Shown here: one piece after another, positions 34,603 through 62,208 of the stretch | Layout: each line of letters opens with the position of its first letter | Numbering within the stretch: position 1 is the first letter of the stretch | From: a virus | Direction: 5' to 3' (one strand) | Length of the DNA: 64,000 nt | Virus record (IMG/VR): IMGVR_UViG_3300046674_000532 | Position numbers and translations under genes: made by a program | Notes under the pieces: generated by a model | What the model was told of the DNA's origin: nothing | Database searches by the model: none | The model's input: the letters and a program-made list of their open reading frames with translations, nothing else

Positions 34603-34729
34603 TCCCCGCGCCTGAGCTGCTGTGTGGCGGACCGCTGTGGTGCGGTCGTCCCTCGGGGTGTGGAGTGTGGGGCGGAGGGTCGCCCGGTGATCTCAGGCTA
34701 CGGCCTGACGGGGCGTGTGTTGCCCCGGC

Positions 34730-34954
34730 TCATTCGCCGAGCGGCGGGAGCGGGGTGACGGGGAAGATCTGCTCGTGCCGGGCTGCGGTGACGGACGCGA
34801 AGTCGGTGCCAGTCTGGATGAGCCATTCCTGGATGTGGTGGGCGAGGGCGACTTCGTCGACGCGCTGGTTGTCGGACTGCACGTGCACGGTGACGACGGT
34901 GGGGTTCTCGTCACCGTTGCTGGTGCAGGTGAGGACAGTGCTGGGGAAGTCCAT
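34730..34954 (-). CDS. Hypothetical protein (74 aa)
   Basis: ATG at 34954, 2 nt after the fibre gene stop (MDFPSTVLTCTSNGD...). Confidence 0.5.
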   Translation of the reverse strand: MDFPSTVLTCTSNGDENPTVVTVHVQSDNQRVDEVALAHHIQEWLIQTGTDFASVTAARHEQIFPVTPLPPLGE

Positions 34955-34956
34955 GA

Positions 34957-37875
34957 TCAGGCCACCCTTTCGAGTGTGAGGTAGGAGTCGAGGTAGAGAG
35001 TGGTGGCGGTTGCGTCGCTGGTTCCCTGGGCCCATTGGAGGGCGAACGTTCCAGCGGTGCCACCGACACGGACGGTTGCTTTGACCTGGACGCCGTATCC
35101 GTTGGCCGCGATGCCGCCGTAGGTGCGGGGGCTGGCCAGGTCGGTGGATTCGGTTCGGACGGCGTACCCCCAAGTGGAGGATGTGTCCTGCTGAGTTCCT
35201 CCGCCGCTTGTCCCGGAGATGACGGTGACGCCGTTTCCGAGGCCCTGCCAGGTGCCGTCCGTTCCGGACGGGAAGGTCCATCCCATCTTGAAGTCGCCGG
35301 GCCCAGAGTGCAGGAGGAGGCCTTCCACCGTGTACACGGCTCCCGCGTCCACGGCGAAGGTGATCTGGGTGTCGGTGGCCAGGGTGGTGTTGCTGGTCTT
35401 GGTCGCGTTGCTGGTGCGGTACTTGGTCTGGCGGCTTCCGATACCGGAGACGGTCAGGTTCCCGGCCACGGTGGCGTTGCCGTCCTTGTCGACCTTGAAC
35501 TTGTCGACGGAGTTGTACTGGGCGCGTACCAGGCTGGCGGTGTGCCCGGTCTCGGCATTGACGTAGAGGGCTGCGGATGAGGAGGCGGGTGCGAAGATCT
35601 CGAGTCGGGCTTTGTTGATCTGTCCGACTCCCTGCTGGAGCGTCAGGACGGCGTCCTGGGTGGAGTCGGCGGAGTTGCGGAATCCGATGCTTGCCGAGGT
35701 GCTGGAGAGGAAGATCCGTCCGCCGAGGTAGACCGAGGTGTCGGAGTCACGGACCCGTTCCGCGCACCAGAAGTCGGTGCCCAGGGCGCTGCCGAAGATG
35801 GTGCGCCACTTCATGTCGGAGAAGGCGCCCGCGGTGAAAAGGCCCGAGTTCATGCCGAGGACGGCGGCCGAGCCGGACACGTTGATGACGGCAGAGTTCG
35901 TACCTGCCGCGTTCGTCAGCCGCAGGTTCGGGAAGACGTCGTTCGGGTCGAGCCAGAGGATGGCGCCGTTGGTGCCTTTGACCAGCAGGCCGGAGGCGGA
36001 CAGTTCACCGATCGCGGTGCCGCTCGAGTCGTAGACGAGGACCTTGTTGGCGGAGGACTCGTTCAGGGTGATGCGCTGCCCGGAGGCGGCGGTCTGGATG
36101 AGGGCGCCGGTGATGGTGCCGCCCGTGATGGTCTTGCCCGTGATGGCGGTCGCCGACAGGGCGGTCGCGTCCACCGCCCCAGCCGTGATCTTCGCCGCCG
36201 TAATCGCACCATCGGCGATGTTGACGGTGTTGACCACACCGGTCGGCAGGGTCTCCACGGTGACCTGGTCGACCTGCATGACGCCGCCGGTGGCGCCCGT
36301 CAGGAGCCGGACGACCGGGCGGACGTAGCGGACGTTCGTGTGGACTTTGCCGGGTGATTTCGGGTCCGGGCTGGCCGCGGTGGTGCCGGTGGACGCTGTG
36401 CCCTGGACGTAGCCGGTAAACGTGGTCCAGGCGGTGCCGACGCTGACCGTGACAGCGTTCGCGGCAATGTAGTGCTGGCCGGTGACGACGGCGTTGGCGC
36501 CGGTGGAGGAGACGCGGGTGGTGCCGTCCGCAGCGATCCCGACCAGGCCCATGGACACGTTCGCGGTGCCCGCGGAGGGCGCGGTGGTGGTGCGGACGCG
36601 GGCGGTGACCCGGTACATCGTGTCTGGGTCGTAGGGCGTGTTGACGTTCCGTTCGAGGGTGACCGGCCCGGCAGCCTGGGCGACGGTGCCGCCGGCGGCC
36701 GCGTCGGAGACTGCGGTGAGCCAGGTCGGGGTGCCGGCGTCGGAGGTCTGCGTCCACAAGGTGGAGTCGCCCATGGCGTCGACCATTTTCGAGGCGATGG
36801 CCTGGGCGATGCCGACGGTCAGGGCGGTCGCGGTGACCGCTCCGGCCTGGATGTTGCCCGCGGCCACCGAGTTCACTGCGAGTTTCCCGGCCGTGACCGC
36901 GAGGGCGTTGAGCTCGCGCGCGGTGATGGCGTTCGCGTCCACCGTCCCGGCCTGGACCGCGTTCGCGGCGATGTTGCCCGCTTGCACGCTGTTCGCGGCC
37001 AGGTTCCCCGCCTGGACGGCCGCTGCCGCAATGTTCCCGGCCACCACGCTGCTGGCGTCGAGCTTGCCCGCGATGACGGCCCCGGCCGCAATCTTTGCCG
37101 CAGTCACGCAGGTCGCAGCCAACTCGTTCGCTGTGATAACGCTCGCGACCAGCTTTGGCGTGGTTATCGCGCCGTCGCTGATTTCGGTGTTCCCCACCGC
37201 TCCAGCCGCGATGGCTGCATTCGTGACGGCGTCCGCGGCGATGATGGCTGCCGTGACCGCCGCGTTGGCCAGGGCATCTGTGTCGATGGCCCCGGCCGCT
37301 ACCTTCGCGGAGGTGACCGCGTCGTCGGCGAGTTTGAGCGTGGTGACGATGCCGTCGAGGATGTCGTCCGCGACCACCGGTGTCGGGCCGAACGGCCCCA
37401 CCGTCACGGAGGGCGGGGAGGCGGCGCCGGAGGTGTTGCGGGCCAGGAGGCGGACGTAGACGGGGGTGTCGCAGGAGTGGACGACGGTGGCGCCTTGCGC
37501 GGTCTCGATCGTGGTGACGAGGGTGGCAGGGACCGGCGTGTAGACGGGGGTGATGGAGGCGTGGACTTCGACGCGCTGCCAGTCCATCGGAATGACCGTG
37601 CCGCCCGCGAACAGGCCGTCCCAGGAGACGGTGACTCCGCCGAGGACGGACGCGACGATCGGGTCGGACGGCTGGGGCGGGGGCGGCCCGTTGACCGCTT
37701 GGACGCCTACGGTGCCGTCGCCCTGGACGCCGAGGATCGCCCGGACCTGACCGGAGCCGCTGTTCACGGTGACGGCGGCGTTCTCGATGGACGCGCCGTG
37801 TGCGAGCCGCTGCCCTTTGCGGACCTGGGCCAGGGCCCGCTCGAGTGCGGCGACCTTCTCGGGGACGGTGGCCAT
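34957..37875 (-). CDS. Large tail fibre / receptor-binding protein (972 aa)
   Basis: Track ORF 34957..38625 trimmed to the ATG at 37875 (MATVPEKVAALERA...). A long run of short Ala-rich repeats (AANAVQAGNIAANSVQAGNLAA...) is followed by beta-rich C-terminal domains. Confidence 0.8.
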   Translation of the reverse strand: MATVPEKVAALERALAQVRKGQRLAHGASIENAAVTVNSGSGQVRAILGVQGDGTVGVQAVNGPPPPQPSDPIVASVLGGVTVSWDGLFAGGTVIPMDWQRVEVHASITPVYTPVPATLVTTIETAQGATVVHSCDTPVYVRLLARNTSGAASPPSVTVGPFGPTPVVADDILDGIVTTLKLADDAVTSAKVAAGAIDTDALANAAVTAAIIAADAVTNAAIAAGAVGNTEISDGAITTPKLVASVITANELAATCVTAAKIAAGAVIAGKLDASSVVAGNIAAAAVQAGNLAANSVQAGNIAANAVQAGTVDANAITARELNALAVTAGKLAVNSVAAGNIQAGAVTATALTVGIAQAIASKMVDAMGDSTLWTQTSDAGTPTWLTAVSDAAAGGTVAQAAGPVTLERNVNTPYDPDTMYRVTARVRTTTAPSAGTANVSMGLVGIAADGTTRVSSTGANAVVTGQHYIAANAVTVSVGTAWTTFTGYVQGTASTGTTAASPDPKSPGKVHTNVRYVRPVVRLLTGATGGVMQVDQVTVETLPTGVVNTVNIADGAITAAKITAGAVDATALSATAITGKTITGGTITGALIQTAASGQRITLNESSANKVLVYDSSGTAIGELSASGLLVKGTNGAILWLDPNDVFPNLRLTNAAGTNSAVINVSGSAAVLGMNSGLFTAGAFSDMKWRTIFGSALGTDFWCAERVRDSDTSVYLGGRIFLSSTSASIGFRNSADSTQDAVLTLQQGVGQINKARLEIFAPASSSAALYVNAETGHTASLVRAQYNSVDKFKVDKDGNATVAGNLTVSGIGSRQTKYRTSNATKTSNTTLATDTQITFAVDAGAVYTVEGLLLHSGPGDFKMGWTFPSGTDGTWQGLGNGVTVISGTSGGGTQQDTSSTWGYAVRTESTDLASPRTYGGIAANGYGVQVKATVRVGGTAGTFALQWAQGTSDATATTLYLDSYLTLERVA

Positions 37876-37877
37876 GG

Positions 37878-38975
37878 TCAGGAGTCCTCCGGCGATCCGT
37901 AGTGGAAGCTGTCGGCGCGCCGCAGCGTCAGGACGGCCTGGTCGGGGTTGTCGCCGGGCTGGTAGGAGTCGGCCGTGATGCGCGCCCATCCGGTGTACGA
38001 CGTCCACTCGTTGTGCACTGCTACCTGGACGTCGTCGCCGATCTGCCAGGACCCGAGGCGGGCGTTGGGGTGGTCGCGGACGGTGATCTGGTCGACCTGG
38101 CCCATGATCTGAAGCTTGCGGCGTTCGGCGGTCGCGCGGCGGCCGAGGACGTCGTTGCCGTTGACGGTGGGCAGGGCCAGCACGGTCTCCATGCGGAGGC
38201 GGCCGTCGCGGGCGGGGTCGACGGCGAAGCGGGTGGCGGTGCCTTCGCCGCTGCCGGTGGCGATGACGACGTTGGCGTAGTCGTCCCCGGACCGCTTGAC
38301 CGGCGGCGCGTTGATGATGTTCACGCCGGACCGGAAGCTGATGTCGGTGCGGCGGGCGCCCAGACGCGGGTAGCCGAGCGCGAGGCGCCGGCGGATGCTG
38401 CCGTTGGACTGGAAGGAGCAGAGGTTGGTGTACTGCGGGGCGCCGTCCTCGGACACCAGGTCGTCTACCAGCTCGCCCAGCACCGGGGTCTCGTACCAGT
38501 AGGAATGCCACGGCTCGGCCGGCGTCCCGGACTTCGCGCTGGACGTGGTGGAGTCGACGACGACGCCGAGGTTCCCGTCCGGCTGCTCCTGCGCGTACGC
38601 CCAGATGTCGCGGATGATGTCGCACGGGTCGGCGTACGTGTACGGACCGCGTCCGTTCAGTTCGCCGTGCTCGTCGTGCCGCTTGGTCAGGTACGACGAC
38701 CAGGACGCGGCCTCGAGCCGGTACTCACCGCCTTCGGCTTCCACGGACCAGACGAGGCCGCCCCAGCGCAGGAACCCGTCCGCTTCCGCGTAGATCAGGG
38801 CGACGGCCGGTTCGACCAGTGCAGCGTTCGCGGCGACCCAGTGCGGGGCGAGGGTGGCGGAGAAGCTGCCGGGGCCGTTGAGTTCGTTGCCGAACTCCAC
38901 CCCGGACAGCGGCAGTGCGGGGTGGAGGACGGCGCCAGTCAGCGCGTGCTGCGTGAAAAAGCGCCAGCGCCCCAT
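37878..38975 (-). CDS. Minor tail / baseplate-hub-like protein (365 aa)
   Basis: ATG at 38975 (MGRWRFFTQH...) overlaps the upstream stop. Position lies between Dit-like and fibre genes. Confidence 0.7.
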   Translation of the reverse strand: MGRWRFFTQHALTGAVLHPALPLSGVEFGNELNGPGSFSATLAPHWVAANAALVEPAVALIYAEADGFLRWGGLVWSVEAEGGEYRLEAASWSSYLTKRHDEHGELNGRGPYTYADPCDIIRDIWAYAQEQPDGNLGVVVDSTTSSAKSGTPAEPWHSYWYETPVLGELVDDLVSEDGAPQYTNLCSFQSNGSIRRRLALGYPRLGARRTDISFRSGVNIINAPPVKRSGDDYANVVIATGSGEGTATRFAVDPARDGRLRMETVLALPTVNGNDVLGRRATAERRKLQIMGQVDQITVRDHPNARLGSWQIGDDVQVAVHNEWTSYTGWARITADSYQPGDNPDQAVLTLRRADSFHYGSPEDS

Positions 38976-39928: not shown

Positions 39929-39938
39929 GACGGGCCTC

Positions 39939-45925: not shown

Positions 45926-45967
45926 CGGTACGCCCCTCCCTCGCTGCTCGACTCGTGCGGTGTGCGG

Positions 45968-46899
45968 TTACCGGGCGCCGAGTTCGGCGGCCAGCTGCTG
46001 CGCTGCGTGGATGTGCGCGGGCAGCAGCAGGACCTTCAGGCCGCCCCCGGCCTGCCCGTCGGGGATCTCCTTCTGCCTCATGGCGATCTCCTCGCAGCCG
46101 AAGCAGTTGTGCGTGACGGCGATGTAGGAGTCCACGTATTCGCCGTTCTCGTCGACCCACTCCGATTCGCGGGTGCCGCACTGCGGGCACATCCCGCGCA
46201 GGTAGTCGGCGTAGGCGAGGGCCTTGTCCCGGTCGCCGGCCGACCAGGTGCCGTCGCCGAGGCCCCGGAACTGCGAGTACGGGATGCGGTACTCGCGGCA
46301 CAGGGCCATCTCGGCGCGGAACCGTAGGTCATCGGTCAGCCTTTTCCCAGGTCGGCCCGGGTGGTGTTCTGCACCCCGTAGGCGGCGTTGAACATCGCGT
46401 TGGCCTCGGCAAGCGACCAGGACTCGAGGAGCTCGCGCGCTTCGGTCTCGGTCATACCGTCGACGGACGCGGCCGCGATCAGCGCGGCGGGGTATCCCTC
46501 GCCCCACTCCTTGCCGTCTTCGGATTCCGCCTCGGACGCCGGATGCGCCTTGAAGACGGCTTCGTAGGCCGGGCGGGGCAGGGCGCGGAAGCGGATGGCG
46601 ATGGCGACCTGGTCGTAGGCGGCGTTCGCCTCGTCCCGCTCCCGGGTGGCGGTGGCGAGGTCGGCGGCCGCCTCAGCGTCCTTGGGGTGGGCCTTGGCGT
46701 AGTTCTCGGCCAGGTCGAACGCGCGGGCGGCCCGGTTGTGGCGGTCGCGGACGGCCTGGTCGTCGCAGATGACGAAGGTGGTCTCGGCGAGCGACCGGTT
46801 GCGGAGCCGGTTCATCTTGGCGGACCAGTGCGCGTCGGCGGCCACAGCCTGCGCGGGCGGCTCGGGGGTGGCGGTCTGCCGGGTTCGGGTGGTGGTCAT
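45968..46899 (-). CDS. Tail assembly chaperone -1 frameshift fusion product (gpGT analogue)
   Basis: A -1 slip on G_GGA_AAA (46342..46348) continues as GKRLTDDLRFRAEMALCREY..., exactly the frame of track ORF 45968..46507. Confidence 0.75.
46336..46899 (-). CDS. Tail assembly chaperone (gpG analogue, 187 aa)
   Basis: Lies between the major tail and tape-measure genes. It ends ...ADLGKG* with the slippery heptamer GGGAAAA at its 3' end. Confidence 0.8.
   Translation of the reverse strand: MTTTRTRQTATPEPPAQAVAADAHWSAKMNRLRNRSLAETTFVICDDQAVRDRHNRAARAFDLAENYAKAHPKDAEAAADLATATRERDEANAAYDQVAIAIRFRALPRPAYEAVFKAHPASEAESEDGKEWGEGYPAALIAAASVDGMTETEARELLESWSLAEANAMFNAAYGVQNTTRADLGKG
46342..46348 (-). 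other. Programmed -1 ribosomal frameshift slippery site GGGAAAA
   Basis: Canonical X_XXY_YYZ heptamer in the zero frame (CTG GGA AAA GGC TGA), 4 nt before the chaperone stop. Confidence 0.75.
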
Positions 46900-46920
46900 G
46901 GCGGGTGGGTCCTCCGGTTC

Positions 46921-46961: not shown

Positions 46962-47014
46962 GAACGCGTCGGGGCCCGGCCGGGCGTAGAGGGGGTGTTG
47001 CGGTCCGGCTGGGG

Positions 47015-50829: not shown

Positions 50830-50859
50830 CCGGGGTGGTGGTGGGAAGGGGGTGTGCGG

Positions 50860-50907
50860 GTGCGGGCCCGCCGGGTGGCGCCCCCACCACTGGTGGCGGG
50901 CCCGCAC
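50860..50907 (-). terminator. 13-bp GC hairpin after the capsid gene pair (attenuator-like)
   Basis: GTGCGGGCCCGCC / GGCGGGCCCGCAC with a structured 22-nt loop. It starts 5 nt after the 50912 stop. Confidence 0.5.
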
Positions 50908-50911
50908 GCCG

Positions 50912-51223: not shown

Positions 51224-51226
51224 GGC

Positions 51227-52288: not shown

Positions 52289-52301
52289 GTCGGGCCCCTA
52301 C

Positions 52302-53039: not shown

Positions 53040-53140
53040 GCCGTGCCCCTTTCGCGTGTTCCGCGGGTGTGGGAGAGGTCGCCTGCCTGGCGCCGTCCAC
53101 GGGGGTCAGGGCGTGGTCCCTTGGGTGGTGCTGGTCTGGG

Positions 53141-54037
53141 TCAGGCTGCGTCCGGGGCGCGCAGGCCCCGGTCGATGGCCATCTGCCGGGCGGCTGCGTT
53201 GATGGCGTCCTTGTCGCCGACGGGCTGGCGGGGGGCGTTGCCTCCGGCCGGGCCGCCGGACGGGGCGGGGGGAAGCGTCAGGGGGGCGGCCGGGGCGCCG
53301 AACAGTTCGGGCCGGCGCTGCTTCAGCTTGTCGGCGGCCGCGGCAAGGGTGGCGGCGTCGGCGTCCGGGTTGTCGCGCAGGTCGCGGTCCAGCATGGCGA
53401 GCGCGTCCTGGAGGTTCGGGGCGGTGACGTTTCCCTGGTCGTCGGCGATGTCGAGGGCGCCGAGCCGGGTGAGGGCCTGCTCGCGGGCCAGCGCGCGCCG
53501 GTCCGCGGCGATCTGGGCGCGGTCCTGGTCCAGCTTGGTCCGGTCGTCCTGGAGGGTCTGGGCCTGGGTGGTGAGCTCCTCCTGGCGGCGCTGCTCCTCG
53601 GTGAGGCGTTCCTTGCGGGTGACCTCGGCGTCCTTGAGGAGTTGTCCGAACTTTTTGGGGTCGAAGTCGTCGGGGTCGAAGGGCAGTCCGGCGGATTCGG
53701 CGAGTTCACGCAGGGCGGCGCGGCGGCCCTTGGAGTTCTCCCGGGCCATGATCTTGGTGAAGGCGCTCTGGGTCATCGGGGCGCCGGTGCCGTGGTCGAG
53801 GAGGACGGCTTCGTCCACGCCCGCGGTCTGCGGCGCGGCAGGCTGTGGGGTGGGAGGCTGCTGGCCTGCGCGGGCGGCGACGTCGGCCGGGGAAGGCACG
53901 GCGGGAGCTGCCGGGGCGGGCGCTCCGCCCTGTCCGCCGTCGTTGTAGAACACGGCGGCCGCGAGGACACCCGTGTACGGGTGCGCCCAGGCGGTGCGCG
54001 GGGTGGGGCCGAGGTGGTGCTGCGCGGGGCGACGCAT
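53141..54037 (-). CDS. Scaffolding protein (298 aa)
   Basis: ATG at 54037 has GGGAGGA 9 nt upstream. Central charged coiled coil (TRKERLTEEQRRQEELTTQAQTLQDDRTKLDQDRAQ). Position follows the portal gene. Confidence 0.65.
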   Translation of the reverse strand: MRRPAQHHLGPTPRTAWAHPYTGVLAAAVFYNDGGQGGAPAPAAPAVPSPADVAARAGQQPPTPQPAAPQTAGVDEAVLLDHGTGAPMTQSAFTKIMARENSKGRRAALRELAESAGLPFDPDDFDPKKFGQLLKDAEVTRKERLTEEQRRQEELTTQAQTLQDDRTKLDQDRAQIAADRRALAREQALTRLGALDIADDQGNVTAPNLQDALAMLDRDLRDNPDADAATLAAAADKLKQRRPELFGAPAAPLTLPPAPSGGPAGGNAPRQPVGDKDAINAAARQMAIDRGLRAPDAA

Positions 54038-54069
54038 CTGTCCAAGTCCTCCCAGACTCGTACTGTTTC

Positions 54070-54084
54070 CAGGCCCCGCGCCTG
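54070..54084 (-). promoter_or_regulatory. Start-associated motif CAGGCGCGGGGCCTG (minus-strand sense), copy a
   Basis: 33 nt upstream of the scaffold start. Flanked by GATC (TGATCTCAGGCGCGGGGCCTGGA). Confidence 0.5.
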
Positions 54085-54105
54085 AGATCAAGGACATCAC
54101 AGATG

Positions 54106-55995
54106 TCACGAGGTGTTCCCCCCGCTCCCCTGCTGCCCCTGCGCGGCCGGGCCCTGGGCGGCAGCGGCTGCGGGGTCGTCGGACGGCAGGGCGGGCAGCT
54201 GGACCGCGGGCGCTTCGGGCTCGTCGGGGGCTTCGCGGCCGAGGAACTTCGCGGTCTCGTCCACGTTGCCGAGGGCGTCGGCGAGGTTGCGGGCGTCGTC
54301 GAAGGAGCGGGCGTCGATCCGCTTGATCTCTTCCTCGGCGTCGTCGATGGGCCAGCCGATGTCCTGCAGCATTCGGATCGCCGTCTCCAATGAGATCAGC
54401 TTGTCGGTGCGGGCGTTGCGAATGGACTCGAGGGCTGCCGTCTTGTCGGTGGGACGGAACGAGCCGCGCACGATCTTCGCCGGGAGGGGGGTGATGCCCG
54501 CCCAGTCGGGGTGCTGGCCGGCGAGGAACAACCGTTGGACGAACTTGGGGAGGAGCCGGTCGGCGTGGTCGCGGGCCAGGCGCATCCCGGCGATCAGGGA
54601 GTCCTCCGGGCCCAGCGCCAACTCGAGAGCGTACCCGGACGGCATCTTGGACGGGTCCAGGGTGCCAAGGGCGACGGGCGGGATACGGACGACGTTCGCT
54701 GCGCGTTCGCCGAGGTCGTGGACCTGGTTGCGGAGTTCGGCGAGGTTGCGGCTGGTGTCGACGGTGGTGATGCCGCCGCCCTCGCCGAGCGTGAACACCA
54801 GACCCGGCCCGGCCTCATAGTGCTGCTGCCCGGACACCGACTTCCCGGAGATGCCGATCATCGGGGAGCCGGTGGTGGCCGAGGCGCGGCTGGAGTCGGT
54901 GTCGGAGCCGGACAGTTCGTCGAAGATCTGCAGGGCCTTGGCGAGGCTGGACTGCCCCCAGTGCTCCCCCGGCTCGGGCACGGTGTTGGGGACGTGGATG
55001 ACCGGCAGGAAGTCCTGGTACAGGTCGAGGCGGTCGAGGATCTCGCCCTGCTCGTTGGTGGCGAAGGACGCCTTGCCCATGGGCAGGCTGTCGATGTCGA
55101 CAGGGCCCTTGAGGTCGCCGAGGTCCCAGGTCGCGTCGGTGAGGTAGCAGGTCCTGAACGACGGCTTCTCGGACCAGGGGTACAGGCGGGTGATGGAGCC
55201 GTTGGCGTCGACCTGGTCGCCCTGGCCGAGGACCGGGGCGGACGGGGTGGTGTCGGTGGCTTCGGACATGACGGGGGCGCGCAGGGCCCGGCCGGTGCGG
55301 TCGACACCGTTCGCGGTGCGAGGGCCGATCCAGTCGAGGTGGTAGGTAATGCGGCGCAGCCGGGCCGGCAGCTTGCGGGCCTTGTCCTCCGGGAGTTCCC
55401 ACGCGAAATGCACTTTGTCGGGGTAGTCGGAGCCGTCGTCGTCTTCCCCCACGACCGGGAAGTAGAAGCCGGGGTCGAAGGTTTTCACGCGAACGCGCTG
55501 CTTGTCGCCGTCCCAGTACAGGAGGTAGACGCCGTCGCCGAGGCCTACGGCCTTGCGTTCGGTCTGGAGCATCCGCATCGGCAGGAGTTCCTCGTCGGCC
55601 CACTCCCGCAGCAGCGTCTGGACGCGTTCTGCGGCCGCCGACTCCGGGGTCTGCTGGTCGCCTTCGGCGCCGGGCACGGTGATGATCTGCTCACTGCCCA
55701 GGACGTCCGAGGTCAGCTTGTCGACGAACATCGACGGGTCACCGAACTCGCGCCGGTCGCGGGCCGTATCCCCGTCGACGAAGGCCGACAGTTCGGCGAC
55801 CTGGTTGTGGTCGTAGGCCTTCAGCAGCTTGTAGGAGGCCAGGCGGCGCTCGTCGGCGGCGGGGACCCAGGTCGCGGCGGCTTCCGGAAAGGCGCGGCGG
55901 TGGGGCATGCCGAGGCTGTCGGAGAAGATCGGCTTGTAGTTCAGCCACGACCAGCCGTCGATGACGGCCTCTCTCAAGCCGGTGAAGAGGCCCAC
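54106..55995 (-). CDS. Portal protein (629 aa)
   Basis: GTG start with GGAAGGA upstream. The size and the position after the terminase/nuclease genes are typical. Confidence 0.85.
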   Translation of the reverse strand: MGLFTGLREAVIDGWSWLNYKPIFSDSLGMPHRRAFPEAAATWVPAADERRLASYKLLKAYDHNQVAELSAFVDGDTARDRREFGDPSMFVDKLTSDVLGSEQIITVPGAEGDQQTPESAAAERVQTLLREWADEELLPMRMLQTERKAVGLGDGVYLLYWDGDKQRVRVKTFDPGFYFPVVGEDDDGSDYPDKVHFAWELPEDKARKLPARLRRITYHLDWIGPRTANGVDRTGRALRAPVMSEATDTTPSAPVLGQGDQVDANGSITRLYPWSEKPSFRTCYLTDATWDLGDLKGPVDIDSLPMGKASFATNEQGEILDRLDLYQDFLPVIHVPNTVPEPGEHWGQSSLAKALQIFDELSGSDTDSSRASATTGSPMIGISGKSVSGQQHYEAGPGLVFTLGEGGGITTVDTSRNLAELRNQVHDLGERAANVVRIPPVALGTLDPSKMPSGYALELALGPEDSLIAGMRLARDHADRLLPKFVQRLFLAGQHPDWAGITPLPAKIVRGSFRPTDKTAALESIRNARTDKLISLETAIRMLQDIGWPIDDAEEEIKRIDARSFDDARNLADALGNVDETAKFLGREAPDEPEAPAVQLPALPSDDPAAAAAQGPAAQGQQGSGGNTS

Positions 55996-56013
55996 AGCGA
56001 TCCTTCCGCTATC

Positions 56014-56028
56014 CAGGCCCCGCGCCTG
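56014..56028 (-). promoter_or_regulatory. Start-associated motif CAGGCGCGGGGCCTG, copy b
   Basis: 19 nt upstream of the portal GTG. Context TGATCACAGGCGCGGGGCCTGGA overlaps the nuclease stop codon region. Confidence 0.5.
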
Positions 56029-56031
56029 TGA

Positions 56032-56418
56032 TCAGCGTACGGGCTGGGCATGGTCGGGTTCCCCCGGCTGTTCGGGCAGCGGGACCGTGCGGCGGCCGCC
56101 GTCGTAGTCGACGGCGTGCCCGGCGGCGACGAGGTCCGCGTTGAGGGTGCGGGCGCCCGCGGTGATGGTGCCGAGGATCCGCCCGTACTTCTCGGTCTTG
56201 TCGAGTTCGGTGCGCAGGATCAGGTCGGGCCCGTTCTCGGCGAGCCACTGGGTGGTGAACGCGGTGGCGGCGTCTCCGGCCGGGCTGCCGTGTTCGGGGC
56301 AGTTCACGCCGAGGAGTCGGACGCGTTCGTGGATCTGGATGTGAAATCCCAGGTCGGCGAGGACGTCCAGGGTGTCGCCATCGACGACTCTGGACAGCCG
56401 CGCAGCGTAGACATACAT
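56032..56418 (-). CDS. Staphylococcal-nuclease-like (SNase/thermonuclease) protein (128 aa)
   Basis: VVDGDTLDV...ERVRLLGVNCPE...DKTEKYGRILGTI...LVAAGHAV follows the SNase pattern (DGDT..RL.GIDAPE..D.YGR). Confidence 0.75.
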   Translation of the reverse strand: MYVYAARLSRVVDGDTLDVLADLGFHIQIHERVRLLGVNCPEHGSPAGDAATAFTTQWLAENGPDLILRTELDKTEKYGRILGTITAGARTLNADLVAAGHAVDYDGGRRTVPLPEQPGEPDHAQPVR

Positions 56419-56427
56419 CGGGTTCTC

Positions 56428-58050
56428 CTATCGGCGGCCGCGGAGGCGTTGGTCGCGGTAGTTGGAGGTGCCGAGGCCCTGGGTGGAGGGGTCGGCGAGT
56501 TCGGTGAGGGCGTGGACGGCGGCGTCCATGCGGTCGGGTGAGTCCATGCCGGGGATCCAGGTGACCATCTGGCCCTCGAGGCGGGGGAATTCGCCGAGGT
56601 GGTGGACGAGGCCTTGGGCGTAGAGCTGGGCGATGGGTTCGGCGCGTAGCCGTTTGCCTTGCTTGGCGTGGACTTCGATGATCGATGGCATGAGGAGGCC
56701 GCGGGTTTCGCCTCGTTCGGCAAGCTCTTTCCAGGCCTGGCGGATGATCTGCTTGGCCATGTCGCCGCCGAAGTTGGCTTCGACGACGATGGCGTCGGCC
56801 TGGTACTCGATGGCGAGTTGGCAGGCGGCGAGGCCCCAGGTGTCGGCGCCCATGCGGTCGGATGCGTCGGCGAGGAGGTAGAGGTGGCCTTCGCGGTCGC
56901 GTCCTGCTGCGCACAGGCCGGCTTCGTCGTTTCCGTCTCCTTCTCCGCCGGCGTGGTCGACGGCGACGATGCTGCGGGTGAGGTCGATGCCGCGGAACGC
57001 CATGGGGGTGATGCGGTGGTCGGTGATCCATGGCCATTTCCACACGCCGCCCTCGAGTGGGCGGGGTTTTTGCATGTAGAGGGACCACCAGACGCGTTCC
57101 CCGACGGCGCGGCGGATCTTCTGGAGGGCTTTGGTGCCGTAGCGGATGGGCCACAGGGGGCGGCCGATGTCGCGGCCGAGGGCGTCGTTTTCGCTGTCGG
57201 CGATGGCGGGGAGGTCGAGGATGGTCCAGTCGTCGGCGTCTTCTCCGGCGAGGATGCGGCCGGCGAGGTCCTGTTCGTGCCAGCGGGTCTGGATGACCAG
57301 GATGGATCCGCCGGGTTCGATGCGGGTGTTGAGGACGGATGTCCACCAGTCCCACAGGCGGCGCCGCATGGTGGGGGATTCGGCGTCGGCGGCGTCTTTG
57401 ATGGGGTCGTCGACGACGGCGAGGTGGGCGCCCTTGCCGGTGAGGCCGCCGCCGACGCCTGCGGTGACGAGGCCGCCTTCGAGGCGTTCGCCGGTGTCGG
57501 GGTCGGCGAGGTCGAACCGGTTCGCCGCTTTGCTGCCGGAGTGGAGGGCGAGGCCGATCTGGGGGCCGTAGGAGACGATCGCGTCGCGGATCCACCGTCC
57601 GTGGTCGTCGGCGAGGTCCGCGGAGTATGAGGCGATCATGACGCGGTGGTCGGGGTGCCTCGACAGGTACCAGAGCGGCGCCCACCGGGCCGCACGCCGG
57701 CTTTTGCCGTGCCGCGGAGGCATGGTGATGAGGACCTTGCGGGGCCGGCCGCGGGCGATGTCGCGGAACACCTGGTCGATCAGGTCCAGGTGGCGGGCCT
57801 GCTTCTCCTTCCCGTCGGTGAGGATCGCCGACATGGCGCCCGGCGACCGCTTGAGGGCCATGTCGCGTTCGACCCCGGCGAGGACGGTGCGGACCTCTCC
57901 ACTGGCCCGGCAGGCGATATGGCGGCGCTGAGCCCGGTTCAGGCGCCGGTACTGGGCGACCAGTTGGAGTAGCTCCTCCGCTCCCTGGACGACGTCATCA
58001 ACGTCCTCGTCGTGCCCCGGGCCGACGTCAGGTGTCGTCGCTGTGGTCAT
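56428..58050 (-). CDS. Terminase large subunit (540 aa)
   Basis: Walker A-like MPPRHGKSRRAA, then ...VMIASYSADLADDHG... and a C-terminal nuclease-type acidic region (IVAVDHAGGEGDGNDEAG). Confidence 0.9.
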   Translation of the reverse strand: MTTATTPDVGPGHDEDVDDVVQGAEELLQLVAQYRRLNRAQRRHIACRASGEVRTVLAGVERDMALKRSPGAMSAILTDGKEKQARHLDLIDQVFRDIARGRPRKVLITMPPRHGKSRRAARWAPLWYLSRHPDHRVMIASYSADLADDHGRWIRDAIVSYGPQIGLALHSGSKAANRFDLADPDTGERLEGGLVTAGVGGGLTGKGAHLAVVDDPIKDAADAESPTMRRRLWDWWTSVLNTRIEPGGSILVIQTRWHEQDLAGRILAGEDADDWTILDLPAIADSENDALGRDIGRPLWPIRYGTKALQKIRRAVGERVWWSLYMQKPRPLEGGVWKWPWITDHRITPMAFRGIDLTRSIVAVDHAGGEGDGNDEAGLCAAGRDREGHLYLLADASDRMGADTWGLAACQLAIEYQADAIVVEANFGGDMAKQIIRQAWKELAERGETRGLLMPSIIEVHAKQGKRLRAEPIAQLYAQGLVHHLGEFPRLEGQMVTWIPGMDSPDRMDAAVHALTELADPSTQGLGTSNYRDQRLRGRR

Positions 58051-58531
58051 CCAGTGCGCCTTCGTCGCCCTCGTCGGGGGCTTCGTCGTCCTCGGGATCG
58101 GGGTCGCCTGCTGCTCCGATCAGGCTGCGGAGTTCGGCGATGCTGGCCTGGCTGATGGGGACGGCTCCCCCGCCGGGCCCGGACACCTCGGCGCGGATGG
58201 GTTCGGCCACCCCGTACAGGCGGATCCGTTCGGCGATGAGCCGGCGGGCCGCCTCGACGGCCTTGAGGTCGCCCTTGAGCGCTTTGGGCCACACGGCGGC
58301 CAGGAGGCGTTCGAAGCGGGCTCCTTCGACCTCGCGCAGGTTCTCGACTGCTTCCTTCTCTTCCAGCCGGTTGCGCTGGATGGCGCGCCAGAAGTCTTTG
58401 CGGGCAGCGCCGTCGTCGGCGTAGTCGAGGCGGTCGGCGATGGCTTCGAAGTCCATGCCGGCGAGCTTCAGTGCGATGAGCTGCTTGCGTCGCTGCGCGG
58501 TGACGGCCTGCTGGGCTTTGGATGCGGGCAT
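58028..58531 (-). CDS. Terminase small subunit (167 aa)
   Basis: N-terminal HTH-like region (RRKQLIALKLAGMDFEAIADRL), central coiled coil and acidic tail. Overlaps the large-subunit start. Confidence 0.7.
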   Translation of the reverse strand: MPASKAQQAVTAQRRKQLIALKLAGMDFEAIADRLDYADDGAARKDFWRAIQRNRLEEKEAVENLREVEGARFERLLAAVWPKALKGDLKAVEAARRLIAERIRLYGVAEPIRAEVSGPGGGAVPISQASIAELRSLIGAAGDPDPEDDEAPDEGDEGALDDHSDDT

Positions 58532-58620
58532 CAGTCGTCACCGTCCTGGGCGGTGGTGAGGTCGTGTTCCTCGCCGGCTGCCTGCTGGTGGGTGTGGCTG
58601 CTGTGTGCGCTGGTGGTCAT
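58531..58620 (-). CDS. Possible 29-aa leader ORF upstream of the small terminase
   Basis: MTTSAHSSHTHQQAAGEEHDLTTAQDGDD, GC3-rich. TGATG overlap with the terS start. Its 5' leader is near-identical to that of gene 61590..62165. Confidence 0.3.
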   Translation of the reverse strand: MTTSAHSSHTHQQAAGEEHDLTTAQDGDD

Positions 58621-58654
58621 GGCGGTGGGGGCTCCCGCTCGTATGTCTGACTGT

Positions 58655-58669
58655 CAGGCCCCGCGCCTG
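58655..58669 (-). promoter_or_regulatory. Start-associated motif CAGGCGCGGGGCCTG, copy c
   Basis: 35 nt upstream of the 58620 ATG. Part of a roughly 65-bp leader (58616..58680) that is duplicated at 62161..62221. Confidence 0.55.
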
Positions 58670-58795
58670 CTCCTGATGATCCCTGGTTTCCTCCGTTTCC
58701 TTCCCCCAGCAGGGGTGTTGCGCGTGGCCGGGAGGGGGGCCGGGTCGCGGGCCGGCGGGCGGTGCTGCTCCCCGAATTAGGTTGTCCATCTCATG

Positions 58796-58824
58796 TTGAC
58801 GGCCCATCGGGGCTCCGTTAGATT
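58796..58824 (+). promoter_or_regulatory. Near-consensus sigma-70/HrdB-type promoter TTGACG-17nt-TAGATT
   Basis: -35 at 58796..58801 and -10 at 58819..58824. Followed by GTCCAT, then the GGAGGGAG RBS (58849..58856) and the ATG at 58862. Confidence 0.65.
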
Positions 58825-58861
58825 GTCCATATCAACACGACAACCTACGGAGGGAGCACCG

Positions 58862-59266
58862 ATGCAGAACCTGCGGAGCCTGACGGACAACCAGCTCGCC
58901 GAGGTGTACAGCGACGGCGACGAGGCCACCCAGGCCGCGGTGCTCCGCGAGGCCGCCCGCAGGGACCGCAAGGACGCACAGACCGCCCGCGACAAGGCCC
59001 GCTGGGCGGCCGTGAACGACCAGTGGATGAGCTGGGCCGAAGCGCAGTTCGCCGCCGCCGAGGCCGAGTGCCGCGGATACCTGCTCAACAAGGCCGGCCA
59101 GGCCGAGGGCATGACCCCGTGGACGCTGTGGACCGGCCCCGCAGCCCGCGCGACGCGGTACGCCTCCGAGGAGCTGCTGGAGTTCTGGGACACCCACCCG
59201 CGCCTGACCGTCAGCGAGTACCGCAACGAGCTGCGCCGCGCGAACCACGACCAGCCGGCCGCCTGA
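58862..59266 (+). CDS. Hypothetical protein (134 aa)
   Basis: Track ORF 58793..59266 trimmed to the ATG at 58862, which has a strong RBS. Confidence 0.6.
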   Translation: MQNLRSLTDNQLAEVYSDGDEATQAAVLREAARRDRKDAQTARDKARWAAVNDQWMSWAEAQFAAAEAECRGYLLNKAGQAEGMTPWTLWTGPAARATRYASEELLEFWDTHPRLTVSEYRNELRRANHDQPAA

Positions 59267-59299
59267 ACCGCCCATCCCACCCGCCGAAAGGACACGACC

Positions 59300-59635
59300 A
59301 TGACCGACTCCTCCTCCACCACCCGCTTCCAGGCCCGCAAGGCGCGCTCCGGCTGGTACGTCCAGGACTCCGTCACGGGCGACGTGTGGACGGGACTGTC
59401 CCGGCCCGGTGTGGACAACCTGATCGGCCACCTCGCCAAGGACAGGGCGTCCGCCCCGGTGGTCACGGCGGTCGCGGACGAGCCCGCCACCGCGGACGAG
59501 CCCGGCCAGCAGCCGCTGTGGGTGGAGATGATGGGCGCGGACTTCGGCGAGAGCCGTGGGCCGGTGCAGGGTTCGCTGTTCCAGGCTCCGGATGCGTGCG
59601 GAACGCTGGACCTGTTCGCCGCCATGGGCGAGTAG
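59300..59635 (+). CDS. Hypothetical protein (111 aa)
   Basis: Track ORF. ATG with GAAAGGA upstream. Confidence 0.55.
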   Translation: MTDSSSTTRFQARKARSGWYVQDSVTGDVWTGLSRPGVDNLIGHLAKDRASAPVVTAVADEPATADEPGQQPLWVEMMGADFGESRGPVQGSLFQAPDACGTLDLFAAMGE

Positions 59636-59672
59636 CTTGTCTCTATCAGAACGACTATCTATGGAGGTTGTG

Positions 59673-60032
59673 ATGGGTGCTGAGCCCGCAGGGCTGCCGG
59701 ACGCCGACGAGCTGATCGCCGTGGCGCAGGGGGCGCTGGCCGGCGGCACGGCCGACGACGCGCGCCGCGCGCTGGACGCTTACGCCCCGGCCGTCGACAC
59801 GCTGGTCGATGCGGCCGCGGCCGCGGCGTGGCTGGGCATCTCGCCATCCTCCATCTACCGCGAGCGCTCGCGCGAGCGCGCGGACGGGACGCCCGGCTGG
59901 CCCGACCCGGACAGGAAGTTCGGCCGGTCGGGGGTCTGGAGCTACCGGACGCTGGTGCTGCACCGGGCGACGATGCCGGGCCGGGGTTCGGCCGGCCGGG
60001 GTCGTCCGCGTCGGGCCGGCCAGTCGGGTTGA
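59673..60032 (+). CDS. HTH DNA-binding protein, excisionase/MerR-like (119 aa)
   Basis: ATG at 59673 has GGAGG 6 nt upstream. AAAWLGISPSSIYRERSR is HTH-like. The C-terminus is basic. Confidence 0.55.
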   Translation: MGAEPAGLPDADELIAVAQGALAGGTADDARRALDAYAPAVDTLVDAAAAAAWLGISPSSIYRERSRERADGTPGWPDPDRKFGRSGVWSYRTLVLHRATMPGRGSAGRGRPRRAGQSG

Positions 60033-60058
60033 CGGGGTTCTCACCCGGAAGATAGGTT
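60029..60058 (+). promoter_or_regulatory. Near-consensus promoter TTGACG-18nt-TAGGTT giving a leaderless ASCH mRNA
   Basis: -35 at 60029..60034 and -10 at 60053..60058. The ATG at 60065 lies 6 nt after the -10 and has no RBS. Confidence 0.6.
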
Positions 60059-60064
60059 GTCCAT

Positions 60065-60505
60065 ATGGACGAGACAAGCTTTCAGGATGCCCTGTTCGCC
60101 ACGGACACCGAGCCCACGCCGTACGTGCTCACCGTGAAGCAGCCCTGGGCGTGGGCCATCATCCACGCGGGCAAGGACGTCGAAAACCGCAGCAGGCCTG
60201 TCAACTACCGGGGCAAGCTGCTCATCCAGGCTGGCAAGAGCTACGCCCCCGAGGGTGACAAGTACCTGCGCGATCTGGGCATCACTCCCCCGGCCGACCT
60301 GCCGCGCGGCTGCATCATCGGCTCTGTCGAGGTCGTCGGCTCCACCAGCCGGTCCACCTCCGAGTGGGCCATGGACGGATACCAGCACTGGCTGCTCGCC
60401 GACCCGAAGCCTGCTGCGCAGCTCCTGCCGTGCCGGGGATCGCTGAGCATGTTCCGCGCCCCCGAGGGTTGGGAGCAGGCGTTCACGTCGCCTTCGGGGG
60501 CATGA
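60065..60505 (+). CDS. ASCH-domain protein (146 aa)
   Basis: LTVKQPWAWAIIHAGKDVENRSRPVNYRGKLLIQAG matches the ASCH N-terminal pattern (..QPWA..I..G.K..E.R......G...IHA). Confidence 0.7.
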   Translation: MDETSFQDALFATDTEPTPYVLTVKQPWAWAIIHAGKDVENRSRPVNYRGKLLIQAGKSYAPEGDKYLRDLGITPPADLPRGCIIGSVEVVGSTSRSTSEWAMDGYQHWLLADPKPAAQLLPCRGSLSMFRAPEGWEQAFTSPSGA

Positions 60506-61574
60506 ACTCGAAACTGCGCGTGAGAAGGCGTCGGGGGTCGGAGTAGCGCTTCCTCAGCGAGCCCGTGAGGCTCTTGCCGGGCTTTCCTGTACTCACCTTC
60601 CCGGTCTCGCGCCAGCGTGGGGAGCGCACGCAGTAGGCGATGACTGCCGGATGGGCGACAACTCGCCTGTAACGGCAGCCTTGCTGGTACAAGTGCTGGC
60701 CGATCCATTCGGAGATACGGCCGCTGATCCCCAGCCCCTGGTAGTCGGGCAGGACGACGGACCGGTGGTCCATCTTGATGTTCTTCGCCTGGGCGTGCGG
60801 GAAGTGCATGTAGGCGCTGAAGGCTACGAGGTCGTCACCGATGAAGCCGCCGAAGCAGCGTGCGGAGCGGTTCAGGTCGGCGCTCAGATAGTGATGGCGG
60901 CGAAACAGCGGCCAGACGGTGTGATCGACCTGGTGGATGCGGAGTTCGAGCGCGGGGTGGGGTTGAACCTGCCTCCACGCGAAGGAGTTGGCCGCGACGT
61001 CGAACACCCAGTCGGGCTGGAGCCAGTCGGTGACGTCGTAGTGGCAGGTGACGGCGACGAACTGGCGGTCCTGGCGGCGCACTGCCTTTTGCACCGTGTG
61101 GGAGGCGACCTTGGCGACCTGACGGTCGACGACCGAGGTGAACTCGTCGACGACGACCAGGCCGTCGGTCTCGGCGAGGGAGCGGGCGATGGAGGCACGG
61201 AACGCCTCGCCGTTGGACAGCGTGTGGTGCGGGCGCATCCACGCGGGCGGTGAGCCGAGGCCGACCGAGGTGAGCAGACCGATGATGTCCTTGATGCTCA
61301 TGCTGGCCGGGAAGTCGTCGAGCAGCGACGCGTCCGGGGACCATACATAGTTCGCGGCCATCTCCTCGGGCCACACGTGCCGGGCCAGGGTGGACTTGCC
61401 TGCTCCGGAGGGTCCGACGATGAGACCGACGTTCCAGGGCCGGTCCTCGATGGGCAGGTTCGCGTCGAGGGTGTGGCCGGCTTTCTGCTCGATCGGGACG
61501 TCGAACATGCCGGCCATCTGCAGGACGCGGGCGGAGCTGCAGACGGTGGTGCTGACGTTGACTTGTGCGCGCAT
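60483..61574 (-). CDS. ABC-type ATPase fused to a GNAT-like acyltransferase domain (363 aa)
   Basis: Walker A GPSGAGKST, ABC signature LSNGEAFR, Walker B LVVVDEFTS. The C-terminal half has RSVVLPDYQGLGISGRISEW (acetyl-CoA Q/RxxGxG/A-like motif). Confidence 0.7.
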   Translation of the reverse strand: MRAQVNVSTTVCSSARVLQMAGMFDVPIEQKAGHTLDANLPIEDRPWNVGLIVGPSGAGKSTLARHVWPEEMAANYVWSPDASLLDDFPASMSIKDIIGLLTSVGLGSPPAWMRPHHTLSNGEAFRASIARSLAETDGLVVVDEFTSVVDRQVAKVASHTVQKAVRRQDRQFVAVTCHYDVTDWLQPDWVFDVAANSFAWRQVQPHPALELRIHQVDHTVWPLFRRHHYLSADLNRSARCFGGFIGDDLVAFSAYMHFPHAQAKNIKMDHRSVVLPDYQGLGISGRISEWIGQHLYQQGCRYRRVVAHPAVIAYCVRSPRWRETGKVSTGKPGKSLTGSLRKRYSDPRRLLTRSFEFMPPKAT

Positions 61575-61589
61575 GCCGGGGTGTCCCTT

Positions 61590-62165
61590 CTATGCCATGA
61601 GGGCGCGGACGCGGCGCCCTTCGGCGGCCAGCCGCTCGAGGAGTTCGGTCTGCTGCTGCTCGTCCAGGCATTCGACGATGACGCCCCACGTTGCTTCGGT
61701 GTCCTCGATGGGGGCGTCGCCCTCTTCGGGGAGCTGCGGGGGGACGATCAGTGCGGCGACGTCTTCGTCGGTGTATCCGGTGCCTTCGTAGTCGCCGTCG
61801 AGGTAGGAGATGAGTTCGGCGAGGGCGTCTTTGTCGTTCTCTCCGAGCTCGGCGGTGCGGTTGTCGGCGAGGTTGATCCGGCGGGCGGTGTTGTCGTCGC
61901 AGACGACGACTTCGCAGCGGGCTGTCTCGTGCCCTTCGGCGGCGAGCCCCTGCATGGTGTGGTTGCCGGCCAGGACAATGAGGGGGCCGTCAGGGATTTC
62001 CCGGACGACGAGCGACCTGTACTGGCCGTTGCGGCGGAGGGATTTGCGGATGGCGTCGACGTCGCCGCGTTTCGCGTTGCCGGGGAACGGGGTGAGTTCA
62101 TCCAGGGGGATGTCGGCGGTGCGGACGTAGGTGACGCCGGCGTCGGAGTCGGTGCTTTCGGTCAT
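61590..62165 (-). CDS. ParB-like nuclease (ParB/Srx N-terminal) domain protein (191 aa)
   Basis: LTPFPGNAKRGDVDAIRKSLRRNGQYRSLVV...LAGNHTMQG follows the ParBc pattern (..NPR......l..Si...G...P..V....i.G.HR). The C-terminal half is acidic. Confidence 0.75.
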   Translation of the reverse strand: MTESTDSDAGVTYVRTADIPLDELTPFPGNAKRGDVDAIRKSLRRNGQYRSLVVREIPDGPLIVLAGNHTMQGLAAEGHETARCEVVVCDDNTARRINLADNRTAELGENDKDALAELISYLDGDYEGTGYTDEDVAALIVPPQLPEEGDAPIEDTEATWGVIVECLDEQQQTELLERLAAEGRRVRALMA

Positions 62166-62193
62166 GGCGGTGGGGCTCCCGCTGTGTGGTTGT

Positions 62194-62208
62194 CAGGCCC
62201 CGCGCCTG
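62194..62208 (-). promoter_or_regulatory. Start-associated motif CAGGCGCGGGGCCTG, copy d
   Basis: 29 nt upstream of the 62165 ATG, within the duplicated leader 62161..62221. Confidence 0.55.

Follow-up and report, generated by a model that had tools for sequence, protein, structure and literature searches.

In the late promoters that respond to P2 Ogr and P4 Delta, to Mu C or to T4 MotA, a shared box takes the place of the normal -35 element, and in the P2/P4 system the satellite possesses the same box. Another kind of recurrent phage sequence is represented by the stoperators of the Cluster A mycobacteriophages, about 20-30 in number, which are distributed genome-wide, include the operator of the early promoter, and differ between immunity groups. 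The start-associated sequences (SAS) of the Cluster K phages, in turn, are 13 bp in length (GGGATAGGAGCCC), contain the Shine-Dalgarno (SD) core AGGAG, lie 3-7 bp from a start codon and are present in 11-19 copies in the non-structural half of the genome (PMC3203893). The present work concerns a 15-mer, CAGGCGCGGGGCCTG, found in a stretch of viral DNA of 64,000 nucleotides (IMG/VR record IMGVR_UViG_3300046674_000532), the entire length of which is referred to here as the window. This 15-mer, henceforth Box2, is the downstream half of a two-box element of about 50 bp, whose upstream half is denoted as Box1, a point that was not part of a preliminary description of the same DNA. The module belongs to a known kind, viz. 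the phage-specific conserved late promoters or regulatory repeats, and the interpretation that we put forward, which we consider to have an even chance of being correct, is that the 15-mer is Box2 of a composite phage late-promoter module.

The preliminary description had likened the 15-mer to the SAS of mycobacteriophages. The two are similar in that both are short and asymmetric, occur in a single orientation near gene starts in actinobacteriophages, and are rare in host genomes (for Box2, by composition-based expectation); further, neither shows evidence of hairpin pairing. However, Box2 departs from the SAS in sequence, distance, copy number and location alike, as it has no SD sequence, lies 18-34 nt upstream of the start and is coupled to Box1, and as its 3-4 copies are all at the head of the structural operon. 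The only SAS-like part of the module is a ribosome-binding box of its class C sites (defined below), GGGAGCCCC-ACCGCC-ATG, which is situated 6-7 nt before the ATG and has GGAGCCC in common with the SAS. With the stoperators (the sites of L5 gp71) Box2 shares its asymmetry, its orientation with transcription and its placement in short intergenic gaps within operons, but it differs from them in having 3-4 copies, in its restriction to the late region in two complete genomes, and in being invariant across the family. Judged by these features, the module is not a member of either the SAS or the stoperator family of mycobacteriophages. The P2/P4-type late promoters resemble it in that several promoters with a conserved box are present in each genome and that, in the present case, two chromosomal islands carry the module; they differ from it in showing no sequence similarity and in that the most conserved box of the module lies downstream of the predicted start.

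Anatomy and conservation of the two-box module

A search of both strands of the window identified four exact copies of CAGGCGCGGGGCCTG, all of them on the minus strand, where a first-order Markov model of the window predicts 0.0018 copies by chance (the same model predicts about 0.2 copies per 8-Mb genome of this composition). Based upon the gene that follows, the sites are divided into three classes: class A sites precede the scaffold gene, class B sites the portal gene, and class C sites the leader of terS or of a ParB-like nuclease gene. The positions of the boxes in the window, all on the minus strand, are as follows (ORF, open reading frame; ECF, extracytoplasmic function).

54070..54084, minus strand: Box2, class A, 32 nt before the scaffold gene (ATG 54037); core AGGCGCGGGGCC at 54072-54083
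54091..54099, minus strand: candidate -10 region TGATGTCCT (TGnTnnnnT), class A, without the usual A at position 2
54115..54122, minus strand: Box1 GGGGGAAC, class A, in the last portal codons (GSGGN)
56014..56028, minus strand: Box2, class B, 18 nt before the portal gene (GTG 55995)
56034..56039, minus strand: -10-like TACGCT (TANNNT), class B, ending 7 nt before the invariant A; also CGTAC as an ECF -10
56058..56065, minus strand: Box1 GGGGGAAC, class B, in the 3' end of the HNH endonuclease gene
58655..58669, minus strand: Box2, class C copy 2, in the leader of the mini-ORF, terS and terL, 34 nt before the mini-ORF (ATG 58620)
58676..58681, minus strand: -10-like GATCAT, class C copy 2 (the GATCATC box of the preliminary description)
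58700..58707, minus strand: Box1 GGGGGAAG, class C copy 2
58618..58638, minus strand: Box3 GCGGGAGCCCCCACCGCC and ATG, a conserved ribosome-binding region specific for class C
62194..62208, minus strand: Box2, class C copy 1, 28 nt before the ParB-like nuclease gene (ATG 62165)
62215..62220, minus strand: -10-like GATCAT, class C copy 1
62239..62246, minus strand: Box1 CAGGGAAC, class C copy 1
62163..62182, minus strand: Box3 GCGGGAGCCCCACCGCC and ATG, class C copy 1
34669..34726, minus strand: fifth promoter-like module, before the lysis cassette, conserved in phage ZL12; Box1 GGGGCAAC at 34719-34726, TAGCCT at 34695-34700, and GGGCGACCCTCCGCCCC at 34669-34685 in place of Box2

The central claims of the preliminary description thus hold: an identical 15-mer is present four times ahead of minus-strand starts, at 18-34 nt and for an expectation of about 0.002, and the family is real, strand-specific and tied to the starts of late genes. 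The SD sequence of each gene is separate from Box2 and lies 8-12 nt 5' of the start. The flanks TGATC(T/A)...GGA that the scaffold and portal copies were said to have in common are also confirmed, and the gene names that had been assigned are broadly right, as judged by PHROGs profiles. The two class C leaders are nearly identical as described, but their similarity is not limited to about 65 bp and covers about 90 nt, from the GGGAA of Box1 to ATGACC. In contrast, what had been taken as a partial copy next to the first lysis gene (34600-34614, CAGGCGCGGGGAGTG) has two mismatches and represents the GGGGA SD sequence and GTG start of that gene; as it has neither an upstream box nor GATC, it is not counted here as a member of the family. 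This stretch is retained in phage ZL12.

To guard against circularity, the sites in relatives were collected again without the use of the motif, by means of the scaffold start, the class C ribosome-binding box, or similarity of the portal protein. The invariant core of Box2 in sites gathered in this manner is (A)GGCGCGGGGCC. Among 307 unique instances, position 1 of Box2 is C or T, and less often A, position 2 is usually A, and positions 14-15 vary (TG, GA, CG, TA, TC and others). Box1, (C/A)GGGGGAAC, is located upstream of Box2 in all classes and is present in about 90% of these instances; counted from the invariant A of Box2, the last A of Box1 is at -33±1 in about 99% of them, where the spacing filter permitted a range of 22 nt. 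Box1 is retained in coding (portal, HNH) and non-coding DNA alike. In class A, it is contained in the final codons of the portal gene, and the portal protein, whose tail is variable elsewhere, ends in a conserved GSGGN; in class B, it is inside the HNH gene or, in relatives, past a stop codon; and in class C, it is in non-coding DNA. A spacing between the two boxes that is held to ±1 nt over such unrelated contexts is indicative of a constraint acting at the DNA level.

The sequence between the two boxes is specific for each class. Class B sites always contain TACSCT (TANNNT; also CGTAC) and class C sites always contain GATCAT (NANNNT), ending in both cases 6-9 nt before the invariant A (class membership was itself defined in part by CCGTA), whereas class A sites have TGnTnTCCT and conform to NANNNT in only 25% of cases. 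At the position of an ECF-type -10 element, CGT is present in 98% of class B sites, whereas class C sites have CGATC or GGATC and class A sites have no CGT. The module before the lysis cassette has Box1 and TAGCCT but no Box2, and Box2 is therefore separable from the promoter-like part.

Among sequenced phages, only the Streptomyces phage ZL12 (plasmid pZL12) has a related portal protein, with 62% identity. Twenty Streptomyces plasmids of 85-94 kb in PLSDB, including pSAM1 (of S. ambofaciens ATCC 23877) and pSLE1 (of S. leeuwenhoekii), match this region, and pSLE1 has been described as syntenic with pZL12 (PMC4487206). The window also contains parA/parB, two tyrosine recombinase genes, genes for an SSB and a RuvC-like protein, and two whiB-like genes, and in view of these plasmid and recombination genes and of its pZL12-like relatives, it represents most of a circular plasmid-prophage of the pZL12 type. 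A related portal protein is found in about 300 IMG/VR contigs, and the pZL12/phiZL12-like plasmid-prophages (about 90 kb) are a large, little-studied Streptomyces family. Such plasmid-prophages are common in Streptomyces and their switch to lytic growth is almost uncharted; a cis-element that is invariant across the family and located at the virion-assembly genes provides an experimental handle on this switch and a bait for its regulator.

Hundreds of related contigs contain the motif, and it occupies the same three positions in them. The complete ZL12 and pSAM1, scanned as the preliminary description had suggested for relatives, each contain three true copies and none elsewhere. In IMG/VR, a scan with GATC-N1-12-15-mer yielded 105 stretches, with about 117 sites that fall into classes A-C and about 14 unrelated chance matches. 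In the 77 loci that were selected by their portal proteins (60-78% identity), the core is present before the portal gene in 77/77, and it is also found after the portal gene, except in a few short loci (L345, L366 and L367). Departures from the consensus are limited in these sites: in 19 class B sites the core is preceded by T, C or G, and the last C of the core is replaced by G in two sites. In one contig, IMGVR_UViG_2675903375_000003 (L351), both the portal and the scaffold copies (at 2474 and 4420) read AGGCGTGGGGCC, while the copy in its terS leader conforms to the consensus. Since two copies share this substitution, either gene conversion or co-variation with a factor acting in trans is suggested. 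A census of genome contigs with GGGAA-N27-34-AGGCGCGGGGCC proved too loose, as the matches listed were mostly due to chance and came from unrelated phyla. No description of these repeats was found in the searchable literature, whose coverage did not extend to the original pZL12 paper. As a separate observation, the exact complement of the Box2 core, GGCCCCGCGCC, which codes for A-W-P-R-A, occurs in the terS coding strand about 290 nt 3' of the class C Box2 in many relatives (pSAM1 at 2285-2296, i.e. L201, and L004, L008, L039, L041, L043, L047 and others), but is absent in the window.

The late-promoter interpretation and its alternatives

The composite anatomy of the module, its strict spacing, its conservation and its place at the head of two transcription units are established by the sites described here. 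According to the interpretation that we favor, Box1, at about -39 to -32, would serve as a -35 element similar to those of ECF sigma factors (a G-tract followed by AAC), and it would be combined with a weak, class-specific -10 element at about -13 to -7, viz. TACSCT before the portal gene, GATCAT before terS and the ParB-like gene, and TGnTnTCCT before the scaffold gene. Transcription would begin at the pyrimidine-A step that forms the 5' edge of the 15-mer, and Box2 would then constitute the first 12 or so transcribed bases, i.e. an invariant initial transcribed sequence. The window would contain four promoters of this kind, before the ParB-like cassette, before terS-terL, before the portal gene, and before the scaffold and head genes, as well as a fifth promoter lacking Box2 before the lysis genes, and with each successive promoter transcription would increase in the direction of the head genes, whose products are required in the largest number of copies. 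Box1 might be read by a host ECF-type sigma factor or, if a phage factor redirects it, by the RNA polymerase of the host, while Box2 could be the docking site of a conserved late regulator, either on the DNA or on the nascent 5' RNA. A binding site for a late regulator was the second idea of the preliminary description, and it is a live reading.

Two observations of the sites themselves are in accordance with a promoter. The pyrimidine-A at positions 1-2 of Box2 is the usual -1/+1 step, and Box1 fits the published layout of the -35 elements of group IV sigma factors, in which an upstream G region is combined with an AAC motif (PMC1540707). The -35 element of S. coelicolor sigma-E is similar, with a spacer that is mostly of 18 bp (PMC10771440). 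When the promoters of ECF sigma factors, such as those of sigma-E in E. coli and S. coelicolor (-35 GGAACTT-like), are compared with the module, Box1 shares with them the G-tract and AAC at -35, if the start is the invariant A, and the class B sites share CGTAC 16-17 nt downstream. However, the module has no T-rich tail after AAC, its -10 region is not shared by the classes, and no cognate sigma or anti-sigma gene was found in the element. We know of no counterpart among ECF promoters for an invariant G+C-rich box at +1 to +12.

The layout of the genes around the modules also bears upon this question.

61590-62165, minus strand: ParB-like nuclease (PHROGs)
60483-61574, minus strand: ABC-ATPase-like protein (PHROGs)
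58531..58620, minus strand: mini-ORF of 29 aa (MTTSAHSS...), between the class C ATG and the true terS start
58028-58531, minus strand: terS-position protein (PHROGs), true start MPASKAQQA at 58531
56428-58050, minus strand: terL (PHROGs)
56032-56418, minus strand: HNH endonuclease (PHROGs)
54106-55995, minus strand: portal (PHROGs)
53141-54109, minus strand: frame of the scaffold gene, ATG 54037 (PHROGs)
62268..62975, plus strand: divergent lipoprotein gene (signal peptide with LAGC lipobox; frame plot of third-position G+C content, GC3; homologue of ZL12 gp069)
58793..60505, plus strand: three ORFs divergent from the terS leader (GC3 0.88-0.94)
58681..62220: insertion of about 3.5 kb between the two class C modules, absent from ZL12 and pSAM1

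Genes for the decoration protein and the major capsid protein, located further downstream, are likewise confirmed by PHROGs. The class C module at the ParB-like gene fills the 102-nt gap between two divergent starts (ATG 62165 and 62268), and in ZL12 the lipoprotein gene (gp069) is similarly divergent from terS. Both class C copies are therefore at the head of minus-strand units that are preceded by plus-strand genes, which calls for a promoter in each gap; in particular, the terS operon needs a promoter of its own within 58621-58792, because the plus-strand ORFs at 58793-60505 are divergent from it. Box1-Box2 is the only sequence that is conserved in both class C intergenic regions.

Several considerations weigh against the late-promoter interpretation. 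A literature search found no mapped transcription start for any member of the family, and no sigma gene was found in the window (Pfam, NCBIfam), in ZL12 or in pSAM1, which leaves room for a sigma factor of the host. The -10 region differs between the classes, and most class A sites, as indicated by the 25% that conform to NANNNT, do not have the key A of the -10 hexamer. Positions +2 to +12 consist of G+C only, which makes for an odd initial transcribed region, and the total invariance of Box2 is not needed for ordinary promoter function. Lastly, the class A and B modules are within a co-directional operon, whose transcription does not strictly depend on a promoter at these points. A scan with the sigma-70 consensus gave no match on the minus strand at the module sites. 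We also considered an arrangement in which TTGATC or CTGATC next to Box2 would be the -35 element and Box2 would be in the spacer, as in MerR-like promoters; this was rejected because in class C the GATC is 7 nt further upstream and distant copies do not contain it. If the module is a factor-dependent promoter, it is a candidate orthogonal expression part for the engineering of Streptomyces, whereas if it is an ordinary promoter for a host sigma factor, it would be a useful annotation and no more.

The sequence of Box2 raises the alternative that it functions as a short RNA hairpin in the intercistronic or 5'-untranslated RNA, where it could control translation, direct processing or stabilize the 5' end, possibly while bound by a phage protein, as boxB is by lambda N; we regard this as unlikely on balance. 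A 5-bp stem with a 5-nt loop can be formed in 199/307 sites, the invariant core corresponds exactly to the top three G-C pairs and the loop, so that a minimal hairpin is possible, and all copies lie, in the sense of the mRNA, 18-34 nt before a start. However, among the 307 unique sites pair 1-15 is formed in 69% and broken in 31%, and pair 2-14 is formed in 82% and broken in 18%, while independent columns would lead one to expect 68% and 82% formed, respectively. Compensatory changes are not seen in any pair, and the full stem of 5 bp is missing in 35% of the sites. The hairpin proposed in the preliminary description is thus without covariation support, its two outer pairs varying without compensation. 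As the loop and the stem are both invariant, recognition of the sequence rather than of a structure is indicated. Further, the folding energies of the leaders are ordinary (z -0.1 to -1.3), Rfam 15 gives no match at an E-value up to 1 for positions 33000-64000, and if Box2 acted at the RNA level alone, there would be no explanation for its ±1-nt spacing to Box1, a box that is often inside the preceding gene. The lambda nut boxB site resembles Box2 in its 15 nt, its 5-bp stem and pentaloop in a leader RNA, and a short box (GATC for Box2) a few nt upstream, but in Box2 the pairing of the stem is not kept, its four sites are spread over the operon rather than one being present per early operon, and neither an N-like protein nor a Nus-type boxA was identified here.

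Pairing of Box2 with the start region of the downstream gene is a related possibility. In class A, a perfect 9-nt complement of Box2, GCCCCGCGC, is present at scaffold codons 3-5 in 68/99 sites (p=0.008 against random windows of this sequence in the mRNA sense). However, the corresponding values are p=0.16 for class C and p=0.54 for class B, and although the actual Box2 outperforms permuted versions in all classes, only class A does so against random windows; pairing of this kind was therefore rejected as a general mechanism. No run of T follows any of the copies, and a scan for intrinsic terminators found none on the minus strand at the module sites. It should be noted that the RNA interpretation is compatible with the promoter model if Box2 forms the 5' end of the transcript.

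A different explanation, which we consider rather improbable, is that Box2 is an operator similar to the stoperators, at which a phage repressor silences the late genes in the plasmid state by blocking initiation or elongation. In its favor, the core of Box2 is asymmetric, invariant, in a single orientation with respect to transcription and located at gene boundaries, as are the stoperators of Cluster A (PMC3203893, PMC4351075), and, in the classic manner of a repressor site, it overlaps with the predicted start. However, there are just 3-4 sites per genome, with none in the early or immunity regions, and Box2 is always coupled to Box1 at a fixed spacing. It is also identical among relatives whose portal proteins are 60-78% identical, whereas immunity specificities usually diverge, and a repressor that acts on the late genes alone would be unusual. 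The analysis did not identify a repressor in the family.

The duplication of the class C module within the window could also be interpreted to mean that the boxes are recombination linkers for the exchange of gene modules or, alternatively, binding sites for the small terminase, and both of these we hold to be highly improbable. The two class C copies bracket the 3.5-kb insertion that ZL12 and pSAM1 lack, the substitution shared by two of the three copies in L351 is suggestive of gene conversion, and a match to sigma-70 region 4 is found in the terS-position protein of a relative, Box1 being similar to a region-4 target. However, use in recombination would be a consequence of the conservation of these boxes and not its cause, and linkers would leave the invariant core of 12 nt and the second box at a fixed spacing unexplained. 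Further, the sites are 2-4 kb apart, which is unlike the clustered recognition sites of pac or cos, and cutting at three or four sites in each genome would break the DNA into fragments. That they are themselves cos or pac sites was rejected because the 3-4 copies are dispersed.

Chromosomal islands and candidate regulators

A Box1-Box2 module of the class A type is also present inside chromosomal islands. One of these, L400, has it at about 9920-9980 (this is the same locus as L206, from NODE_1 of S. caniscabiei NE06-02D), and another, L290, at about 6580-6645. The L400 island encodes a serine integrase, an XRE repressor, a helicase with DUF927 and a Cch-type helix-turn-helix (HTH) domain, and an SNF2-type helicase, while in the L290 island only an integrase and an HTH regulator were confirmed. 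Strain NE06-02D also possesses a pZL12-like contig of 94 kb (L112). The module in the islands precedes an ORF of 58-68 aa without a homologue in the plasmid-prophages, and two relatives of this downstream gene are without the module. Based on these two cases, the islands may be satellites, with a late promoter that they captured from a helper, and if this is true, they would represent helper-satellite cross-talk in actinomycetes.

An extended version of this scheme, which we regard as decidedly improbable, is that the pZL12-type elements possess a dedicated factor for late transcription whose target is Box1-Box2. A WhiB-like protein that captures the principal sigma factor of the host would be a candidate for this factor, with Box2 as its loading site on DNA or on nascent RNA. 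The satellite-like islands would then have captured the module in order to be switched on by a co-resident plasmid-prophage, in a circuit of the P2/P4 style. The window encodes two WhiB-like proteins.

3055-3732, minus strand: WhiB-like protein of 225 aa
17907-18833, minus strand: WhiB-like protein of 308 aa

Both of them have long C-terminal extensions and are conserved in ZL12 and pSAM1; one of the two carries the label 'fibroblast growth factor receptor-like' in ZL12. In the PDB, the first is matched best by chain H of 8dy7 and of 8dy9 (both with the bare name "Transcriptional regulator WhiB"). These structures, which we take to be Streptomyces RNA polymerase complexes, provide a lead and not evidence. 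Further candidates for a protein that reads the boxes are the HTH protein at the terS position and a small LuxR-type protein of ZL12 and pSAM1.

The public 'sigma factor' annotations in the pZL12 family are misleading. The gp007 protein of ZL12 (NC_013420), annotated as 'sigma-H', is 129 aa in length, shows no sign of being a sigma factor and has no homologue in the window. The protein HZZ00_RS37470 of NZ_CP058980, which the Prokaryotic Genome Annotation Pipeline assigns to the 'sigma-70 family', is the protein at the terS position, and the only sigma-like feature in it is a region-4-like HTH. Both were rejected as candidates.

The 3.5-kb insertion, the mini-ORF and other repeats

The 3.5-kb insertion between the two class C modules contains the genes for the ParB-like nuclease and for the ABC-ATPase, the latter with a GNAT-like C-terminal part, and the three plus-strand ORFs, and it may be an accessory or defence-related module. 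The ABC-ATPase/GNAT-like protein corresponds to PHROG 11143, which also occurs at the left end of some Gordonia phages. The 29-aa mini-ORF ahead of terS was probably left behind when recombination duplicated the module, and over its first 38 or so nt it shows 74-79% identity to the beginnings of the ORFs that end at 6348 and 7821 (6312-6349 and 7784-7821; MTTRARTSS and MATTARTST).

Around parA/parB (10725-12988) there are three copies of CCGGnATTATCACGnCGTGATAnTT (palindrome ATCACGnCGTGAT), at 11027-11060, 13070-13103 and 13128-13161, which probably serve the partition system as parS or operator sites. Further, CCCACCGCCATGAC is found in exact form at three gene starts on the minus strand (7454-7467, 58616-58629 and 62161-62174) and in looser form at 46895, 8662 and 7821. 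Ribosome-binding contexts of the GGGAGCACCGCC-ATG type recur at other starts, and these are nearer to the idea of the SAS than is the 15-mer.

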